DNA of 64,000 nt from Candidatus Hadarchaeum sp. (GCF_038871235.1 NZ_JAVZIN010000007.1:22404-86403), one strand, 5' to 3'; shown: positions 46,249-57,961, counted from the first letter of the stretch. Numbers and translations are program-made. Notes: generated by a model not told the origin, from the letters alone.

Positions 46249-46546
46249 TGCCGGCGAGCTGGTGGGCGACTGTCGGGCGTAAGCCTGAGGAAATTCCGTC
46301 CATCGGGCAGGTCCGCGGCCCCGCAAGGGTACGGTCGAGAGATCGGGAAGATGGAACAGAAACGACACCCCGCGACTCGCGCCGTGATGCGTAAACGCTG
46401 AGGTCGTGTCGTTGGGGATGAAACGGCCATCACGCGGGATGCAAGGGCAAATTGCCGCCGATGAACGCCTGCCGGAGGTGGGTGGTAGCCCGCTTAGCTG
46501 AATGTCGCCTGAAAACAGAAGACGGATTACGGCCAGCACGCCGGCA
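46249..46546 (+). ncRNA. rnpB: Archaeal RNase P RNA
   Basis: P1 TGCCGGCG..GCTGG pairs with CCAGC.CGCCGGCA. CR-I GAGGAAATTCCGTCC pairs with CR-V ACAGAAGACGGATTA (P4). Also GGAACAGAAAC, GATGAAACGG, GCAAG and GCTTAGCTGAATG. Confidence 0.93.
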
Positions 46547-52974: not shown

Positions 52975-53097
52975 TGGTGCCGGGGGCGGGAATTGAACCC
53001 GCGGCCTCGAGATTTCCTACATCATCCCGTAGTTCAGCACTCAAAGCTGCGGTTGAAGCTATGAGTCTCGCGCTCTGACCAGCTGAGCTACCCCGGC
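52975..53097 (-). tRNA. tRNA-Met(CAT), elongator type, with 46-nt intron at 37/38 (53014-53059) and encoded CCA
   Basis: GCCGGGG/CCCCGGC acceptor stem, CGAGA-CTCATA^A-TCTCG anticodon arm, GTTCAATTC T-loop; 77 nt after splicing. Confidence 0.95.
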
Positions 53098-57866: not shown

Positions 57867-57961
57867 GCGGCCGTGGTCCAGCCTGGTTAAAGCTAAATGC
57901 TGCCAAGAGACTCAGGCTTCCCAAGCCTGCTACGCGGGTTCGAATCCCGCCGGCCGCACCA
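57867..57961 (+). tRNA. tRNA-Gly(CCC) with non-canonical 18-nt intron at 21/22 (57890-57907) and encoded CCA
   Basis: GCGGCCG/CGGCCGC acceptor, CAGGC-TTCCCAA-GCCTG anticodon arm, GTTCGAATC. The D-loop insert folds as a BHB; mature length 77 nt. Confidence 0.92.

Follow-up and report, generated by a model that had tools for sequence, protein, structure and literature searches.

The tRNA-Met intron of Hadarchaeota as a candidate half-mer box C/D guide for C34 of its own precursor

The intron of the elongator tRNA-Met gene in Hadarchaeota is probably a natural half-mer box C/D guide for 2'-O-methylation of C34 (Cm34), which would act mainly in cis on its own precursor. We file it as a half-mer, intron-encoded, self-targeting tRNA-Met guide, set apart from the canonical members of the class because it has no terminal C/D motif; the antisense element, the site rule, the K-loop sequence and the protein machinery are all present. 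The gene was analysed in G000, an archaeal assembly of 1.2 Mb in 16 contigs (94.75% complete) that belongs to the Hadarchaeota (Hadesarchaea), within a stretch of 64,000 nucleotides that we call the window. A sequence-only reading of the window had already proposed a Cm34 guide, and comparison with relatives, as set out below, supports that proposal. The features of the window copy are as follows.

52975..53097, minus strand: elongator tRNA-Met(CAU) gene with encoded CCA (Rfam tRNA match and our own parse)
53060..53097, minus strand: 5' exon, positions 1-37 (own parse)
53014..53059, minus strand: 46-nt intron at the canonical 37/38 position (own parse, Rfam and the relatives' alignment)
52975..53013, minus strand: 3' exon, A38 to CCA (own parse)
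53057..53066, minus strand: target strand of the guide helix, A31 C32 U33 C34 A35 U36 A37 plus intron bases 1-3 (GCU) (pairing tables, RNAalifold)
53063, minus strand: C34, the predicted target base, which faces guide position 5
53039..53048, minus strand: antisense (guide) element, positions 2-11 upstream of box D' (10 pairs, compensatory changes at 3)
53042, minus strand: guide position 5, a G, opposite C34 (pairing table)
53034..53037, minus strand: box D' (CUGA), invariant in 46/46 distinct sequences
53026..53033, minus strand: D'-C' spacer (ACUACGGG), 8 nt, the first five bases of which are the 5' strand of hairpin P34 (alignment, pair counts)
53019..53025, minus strand: box C' (AUGAUGU), with AUGAU invariant in 46/46
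53016..53020, minus strand: GUAGG, the 3' strand of P34 (P34 pair count)
53016..53019, minus strand: UAGG, the last four bases of GUAGG, the splicing-motif strand that pairs with C32-A35 (splicing-helix pair count)
53013..53015, minus strand: 3' bulge of the splicing motif, A A and A38 (all aligned sequences and the 15-nt box-less intron of G056)

The Rfam tRNA model matches 52978-53097 (62.6 bits) and treats 48 nt behind the CAU anticodon as an insertion. Default ARAGORN returns 0 tRNAs across the 64-kb window; with introns allowed it calls the gene Ser(cga) with a 46-nt intron, a miscall according to both the Rfam match and our manual parse. Automatic annotation of Hadarchaeota genomes probably mislabels or misses the tRNA-Met gene. 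The gene has a G1-C72 pair, and its anticodon stem (CGAGA/UCUCG) lacks the three G-C pairs by which the literature recognizes an initiator tRNA. The second CAU tRNA of the genome (C1:111717-111829) is tRNA-Ile2, since its acceptor stem is common to tRNA-Ile(GAU), and this, together with the missing initiator pairs, identifies the window gene as elongator tRNA-Met. The initiator tRNA was not located in the 94.75% complete assembly. The tRNA-Ile2 gene itself appears to be interrupted twice, by one intron ahead of the anticodon stem and another at 37/38, and many tRNA genes of G000 are interrupted, in agreement with the one paper found to mention Hadesarchaea tRNA introns, which remarks only that disrupted tRNA genes are numerous (PMC5829648). 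Two other RNA genes lie in the window: a full-length archaeal RNase P RNA at 46254-46541 (plus strand; Rfam RF00373, 198 bits) and a second intron-containing tRNA at 57867-57958 (plus strand; Rfam 52.1 bits, 92 nt; Gly according to ARAGORN), the intron of which is non-canonical because the extra bases lie in the D-arm region.

On re-reading, the intron (53014-53059, minus strand) is GCTTCAACC-GCAGCTTTGAGTG-CTGA-ACTACGG-GATGATGT-AGGAA, identical to the string given by the sequence-only reading, and its order from 5' to 3' is antisense element, CUGA, 8 nt, AUGAUGU and splice-helix strand. Canonical archaeal C/D guides have two motifs, including a K-turn of terminal box C (RUGAUGA) and box D (CUGA) with a closing stem, and an antisense element of about 10-12 nt lies directly upstream of D or D'. 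The tRNA-Met intron carries an internal D' and C' with a short loop between them, i.e., the boxes of a K-loop in sequence, which we predict to fold as such. The earlier description of a single box pair in D'/C' order holds: a terminal C/D motif was sought, and neither intron nor exons nor conserved flanks contain a second CUGA or UGAUGA; leader, exons and hairpin loop yielded only a non-conserved UGAUC in some loops.

We parsed 89 copies of the element, which reduce to 46 distinct anticodon-arm-plus-intron sequences (alignment A1). In this alignment CUGA and AUGAU never vary, but the bases around them do, in the spacer and hairpin loop and also in the anticodon stem. The sixth base of box C' is G in 45 of the 46 (one sequence has AUGAUU) and the seventh is U or G, never A, which counts against the guide reading; the distance between the boxes is also confined, with CUGA followed after 6-9 nt by AUGAUG in 45/46. 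Upstream of CUGA, positions 2-11 pair with A31-A37 and intron bases 1-3 to form a helix of ten pairs in which 99.1% of the alignment cells are paired. Pairs were counted two ways, anchored on the invariant strings and by a pair-counting tool, with results that agree. The three pairs that involve the intron vary on both sides: i1:g9 is AU in 21 sequences, GC in 17, GU in 7 and CG in 1; i2:g10 is CG in 43, UA in 2 and AU in 1; and i3:g11 is CG in 34, UA in 4, GC in 2, AU in 1 and GU in 1. Genus g1 by itself contains GCU/AGC, ACC/GGU and ACG/CGU variants. As a check on its proposal, the sequence-only reading had asked for boxes that are conserved in related introns and for compensatory changes in their guides, and both are present: the two boxes are invariant across the 46 sequences, and three guide pairs are compensated. 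By the standard of covariation, the predicted 10-bp guide helix is shown to exist in the precursor.

Statistical controls and folding agree with this picture. For the 19-pair structure comprising anticodon stem, guide helix and P34, slid registers are 34-46% paired and 0/500 shuffles match the observed paired percentage or covariation score, and in our own tally of intron pairs i1-i4, 78% are paired compared with 24-67% in slid registers and 0/2000 shuffles reach the count; both shuffle counts overstate the case, since kin are not independent. RNAalifold, given no hint, predicts the anticodon stem and the guide helix, and unconstrained minimum-energy folds contain at least 8 of the 10 guide-helix pairs in 45/46 sequences. 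The minimum-energy fold of the whole window precursor is no cloverleaf, and the intron folded by itself has nothing unusual (z -0.42). A pairing between guide and spacer ('2:3') was rejected, being 79% paired without covariation and no better than shuffles.

The helix has sharp ends, with position 1 paired in 1/46 sequences and position 12 in 4/42. Paired positions 2-11 are also those of solved C/D RNPs. The guide duplex of a C/D RNP is at most 10 nt, capped by two Nop5 C-terminal domains (Yang 2020, PMC7229835), and we count the agreement of the 10-bp helix with this exact limit in favour of a guide. The same holds for the register: the box C/D site rule places the target base opposite the fifth guide nucleotide (Breuer 2021, PMC7994747), and C34 faces position 5 in 46/46. 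The G five bases upstream of CTGA at 53042 had been read as opposite wobble C34 (53063), correctly so. That reading had also counted 10 of 13 pairs between the 13 nt before CTGA and GACTCATA continued across the junction by GCTTC; the recount gives the same figure, and the pairing stands, but not the length of 13, as the comparison delimits a working duplex of 10 bp at positions 2-11.

In the window copy, nine of the ten pairs at guide positions 2-11 form, the exception being a U36-U mismatch that lies two pairs away from target C34 and occurs in 2/46 distinct sequences. The base responsible is 53044 (minus-strand T), guide position 7, opposite U36. This position is G in 37/46, including the two closest relatives of the window (99% identical), and a metagenome contig (run X11) also carries G there. 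The U at 53044 may be a derived state that weakens the guide, or it may be specific to the strain.

The element is widespread in the phylum. A scan of a collection with one genome per prokaryote species used the pattern GACTCATA-N6-36-TGAGTNCTGA-N4-11-ATGATG, with ATGATG, CTGA and GACTCATA required exactly, and returned 54 stretches, 49 of them labelled Hadarchaeota, Hadesarchaea, Hadarchaeum or Hodarchaeaceae. One match labelled 'Methanobacteriota' (L060) is identical to a Hadarchaeota sequence, one in an uncultured archaeon has no tRNA context, and two bacterial matches (L069, likewise without tRNA context, and L082) were treated as chance. In the window's order the element is found in 53/65 species genomes, 22/25 high-quality genomes and 18/19 genera, and in the phylum in 53/66 species genomes and 18/20 genera; a reversed-pattern control gave 1 match in the order scan and 2 in the phylum scan. 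The genomes without it are mostly incomplete assemblies, apart from two families. Family f5 has the element in 0/3 genomes, with an intronless tRNA-Met gene in 2/3 (L044 and L045; G043 and G046), and keeps fibrillarin and Nop5; family f6, a single genome (L043), has a tRNA-Met intron of 15 nt without boxes. A search for a replacement C34 guide in family f5 and G056 found none, giving only two chance-like matches, and given the loss in family f5 the Cm34 modification may be dispensable. One further locus, L038 (G026 C85:846-1040), keeps the intron element and has a 5' half unlike a tRNA 5' exon, which may mean that the gene is split, holds one more intron or was misassembled.

Two more collection-scan matches, L070 ('Methanobacteriota') and L089 ('Micrarchaeota'), represent a second, unrelated lineage with the same intron design:

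G061 C11:22960-22996 (L089/L138): second-lineage tRNA-Met intron
G062 C71:1412-1449 (L070/L137): second-lineage tRNA-Met intron

These two genomes (0.9 Mb and 0.6 Mb) are the only ones with the design among 61 relatives searched, the other 59 being without it. Both introns have ten pairs at positions 2-11, a hairpin loop of 3-4 nt and CUGA-5 nt-AUGAUG, and i3:g11 is C-G in one and A-U in the other, a compensatory difference. Both genomes encode fibrillarin and Nop5. In G061 the distance from the tRNA-Met gene to the Nop5 gene (C11:24086-24757) is about 1.1 kb.

The guide helix competes with the fold required for splicing. An archaeal bulge-helix-bulge intron has its splice sites in two 3-nt bulges separated by a 4-bp helix. 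In the tRNA-Met precursors, C32-A35 pair with the UGRG that precedes the last two intron bases (98.9% of cells), leaving bulges of 3 nt each, formed by U36, A37 and the first intron base and by A A and A38, which is the standard bulge-helix-bulge; the 15-nt box-less intron of G056 has the identical arrangement. The window copy has one mismatch in this helix, C34-A. The guide fold and the splicing fold are mutually exclusive, and cleavage by the endonuclease requires the guide helix, which spans the 5' splice site, to melt first. In the tRNA-Trp intron, too, guide fold and splicing motif are mutually exclusive, as Bortolin is said to have described in 2003. When each fold is enforced in turn, the guide fold is the stabler in 40/46 sequences, by a mean of 2.8 kcal/mol, and the splicing helix appears in the unconstrained fold of just 1/46.

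A second hairpin, P34, pairs the first spacer bases with the last G of box C' and UGRG. It is 92.2% paired with 2 compensatory pairs, the window variant CUAC/GUAG being replaced elsewhere by UCAC/GUGA and CCAC/GUGG, and at least three of its pairs form in 23/46 unconstrained folds. P34 and the K-loop (CUGA/GAUG) probably cannot coexist, since together they would make a pseudoknot whose linkers have no bases at all, and this conflict counts against the guide reading. Family f2 has only a weak P34 and the G061/G062 lineage none, yet both retain the boxes, which suggests that the core of the element is the box pair, with P34 as an addition. The splice-helix strand would be held by P34 for as long as the anticodon loop occupies the guide. 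The sequence-only reading mentions neither P34 nor the switch to the splicing motif.

A parallel is provided by the tRNA-Trp gene of the same genome:

G000 C4:29590-29745 (L106 about 1501-1656), outside the window: tRNA-Trp gene with two introns

Its 37/38 intron, compared across 29 distinct sequences from 30 relatives, has the layout GUGGGUCUG-CUGA-CGNAAGG-AUGAUGA-CCCAYUGGAGC (CUGA-CGUAAGG-AUGAUGA in the G000 copy). Ahead of CUGA lies an element whose positions 2-9 pair (25-29 of 29 sequences) with the final two bases of the intron, with A38 and with C39-C43; C39 is at position 5 in 29/29. The element after C' is antisense to GCUCCAG followed across the splice site by UGG, the C34 region; in the 29 sequences it is followed by GUGY or other strings in place of a box D, and no box C comes before. 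With box D and box C both missing from these places, the Trp guide seems to be reduced to one K-loop in this phylum, and this lone D'/C' motif would support the idea that such a motif can work here by itself. Against Rfam sR40 the Trp intron scores 15.1 bits, under the threshold of 50 and thus a hint only. The euryarchaeal tRNA-Trp intron guides Cm34 and Um39, so that position 39 is a known target (PMC4033218, PMC2584109, PMC4090602), and C39 at position 5 is a parallel that we count for the guide reading of the Met intron.

The proteins that a C/D guide would need are encoded by the genome of the window, at profile scores of 316 bits for fibrillarin, 246 bits for Nop5 and 107 bits for L7Ae:

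G000 C5:74806-76190: fibrillarin and Nop5, side by side
G000 C4:38662-38937: L7Ae

A stand-alone C34 guide was sought in G000 (94.75% complete) by three scans, for the exact core beside CUGA, for CUGA with at least 8/11 pairs and for NUGA with at least 7/10 pairs and a C-like box. None of them gave a stand-alone match with guide architecture, and the intron was the top match each time. A strict-pattern scan of G000 for canonical two-motif sRNAs produced one candidate (C4:92430), which was rejected because of its coding-like context and lack of an rRNA match, and the Rfam C/D families have no match to the window region at E up to 10. Among 13 sequencing runs (one a clear RNA run; X8, X10, X11 and X1 were aligned), the RNA-run pieces are 90-95% alike and correspond to tRNA exons of other organisms; none joins across the intron or contains a circular junction, an outcome that bears neither way on expression or splicing.

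Like the tRNA-Trp intron guide, the Met element is a canonical 37/38 intron that targets its own anticodon arm by antisense pairing across the exon-intron junction (PMC2584109, PMC4033218, PMC4090602). It differs in host, in having one motif and one target where the Trp intron has C/D and C'/D' motifs and acts on positions 34 and 39 (PMC2584109), and in length, 37-50 nt compared with a median of 65 nt for Trp introns (PMC4090602). With Haloferax sR-tMet, given for haloarchaea by Hori 2014 (PMC4033218), and Pyrococcus sR49, it shares target C34, the need for an intron-containing precursor and pairing that extends into the intron (PMC4033218, PMC2584109); those RNAs, however, are separate genes acting in trans, whereas here the guide is part of the intron that its own target carries. 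For archaeal elongator tRNA-Met, Cm34 has been ascribed to C/D guides whose pairing spans the exon-intron junction (PMC2584109, PMC4033218), and Grosjean 2008, with a list of 18 candidate tRNA-Met guides, describes the tRNA-Met guide as 'always exonic' and the Trp guide as 'always intronic', both pairing with intron bases (PMC2584109). Yoshihisa 2014 calls the Trp intron a unique example (PMC4090602), and Trp is the sole intron-encoded guide named by a 2024 review (PMC11408192). We found no report of an intron-encoded tRNA-Met guide in the literature searched, a scope outside which most subscription journals fall.

The lone motif has a counterpart in the engineered half-mers of reconstitution and crystal-structure work, which have one K-turn or K-loop, one open-ended spacer and a duplex of at most 10 bp; half-mers with C/D only or C'/D' only guide site-specific methylation in vitro with Sulfolobus proteins (PMC7229835). 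These are laboratory constructs, whereas the Met intron is a natural, conserved, C'/D'-only candidate. In the same work the existence and function of half-mers in cells is posed as a question, C'/D'-only assembly in eukaryotic cells is doubted, and coupling of the two motifs is given as the popular view (Yang 2020, PMC7229835). Hardin and Batey 2006 regard the bipartite architecture as a primary determinant of specificity (PMC1635284); canonical guides being bipartite, the lone D'/C' motif counts against the guide reading.

Could the resemblance be fortuitous, or the decaying relic of a full-size C/D intron? The box motif is common: CTGA-N4-11-ATGATG has 5 copies in the 64-kb window (both strands), compared with 1.19 expected from shuffles, and 44 in the 1.2-Mb genome. 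The chance of finding it within one 46-nt intron is roughly 1e-3 or less, and TGAGTNCTGA occurs once in the window against an expected 0.44. On these figures the window sequence by itself is suggestive only, and the window copy is mismatched once in the guide and once in the splicing helix. Phylum-wide retention and compensatory changes contradict such an origin, as does the second lineage that shares the design, and we consider it very improbable; the conservation and covariation among relatives confirm, at the level of sequence comparison, that the element is far beyond chance. It is also improbable that the element is RNA structure and nothing else, with guide helix and P34 serving intron stability or processing and with CUGA and AUGAUG as linker and loop that neither form a K-loop nor bind L7Ae. 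The covariation of P34, incompatible with a K-loop, fits such a role, as do the 23 of 46 unconstrained folds with at least three P34 pairs, but invariance of linker and loop in 46/46 would then be unexpected, family f2 and G061/G062 keep the boxes where P34 is weak or absent, and the Trp intron has a K-loop of matching string and spacing.

L7Ae is a member of several RNPs, so that the intron might bind it as a structural switch without methylation, one that times or chaperones folding and splicing or shields the CAU anticodon. In favour of this, the 5' splice site is buried in the guide helix, which is incompatible with the splicing motif, and the covarying P34 masks the splice-helix strand; both helices point to a regulated conformational change. 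We nevertheless find a switch of this kind rather unlikely, as it leaves unexplained why the helix ends at positions 2 and 11 from CUGA with C34 at position 5, and why Trp C39, at a known methylation site, is also at position 5; moreover, other archaea methylate C34 through C/D guides (PMC2584109). A different matter is whether a true guide would act mainly in trans, with the excised, probably circular, intron or another precursor methylating C34 of other tRNA-Met molecules and the cis hairpin as storage. tRNA introns are known circular RNAs in archaea, and the Trp intron guide has been reported active in trans in vitro (PMC2584109, PMC4090602). The sequence-only reading had held that only the unspliced precursor could be targeted; this applies to the window copy, which forms just 1/3 distal pairs with the spliced tRNA, but not generally, since in 25/46 relatives spliced tRNA-Met could still offer A38-U39-C40 as partners for the three distal guide bases. 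Mainly trans action is distinctly unlikely all the same, given that an intramolecular hairpin with loops of 3-12 nt dominates the predicted folds in 45/46 and that the covariation includes intron bases 1-3, which are missing from the mature tRNA.

We therefore return to a guide for Cm34 that would act mainly in cis, the likelier mode because the hairpin loop is just 3-12 nt. The anticodon loop of the precursor, together with intron bases 1-3, folds back onto the antisense element as a 10-bp hairpin stacked on the anticodon stem, and the free RNA would consist of guide helix and P34. L7Ae would then bind the K-loop, swapping P34 for it, and recruit Nop5-fibrillarin; fibrillarin would 2'-O-methylate C34 opposite the fifth nucleotide upstream of CUGA. 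The hairpin would subsequently open, and C32-A35 would pair with UGRG before the 3' splice site, building the bulge-helix-bulge for the splicing endonuclease. Since the guide fold and the splicing fold exclude each other, methylation would precede splicing. In family f2 the cis hairpin has a loop of 3 nt, which may hinder RNP loading.

More tentatively, and with less confidence than in the Met guide itself, we suggest that Hadarchaeota use C'/D'-only intron guides for Met Cm34 and Trp Cm39 as cis checkpoints, in which a guide hairpin hides the splice site, a second hairpin parks the splice strand and methylation licenses splicing. If the Met intron is indeed a guide, it would be without precedent both as a natural half-mer C/D RNP and as an intron-encoded guide for tRNA-Met. 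It would break the stated rule that the tRNA-Met Cm34 guide is always a separate sRNA and the Trp intron the unique intron-encoded guide. As a conserved, naturally occurring element it is a candidate for a half-mer C/D RNP built from the C'/D' motif by itself. The covariation for two exclusive folds would indicate how a tRNA intron can order modification ahead of splicing.
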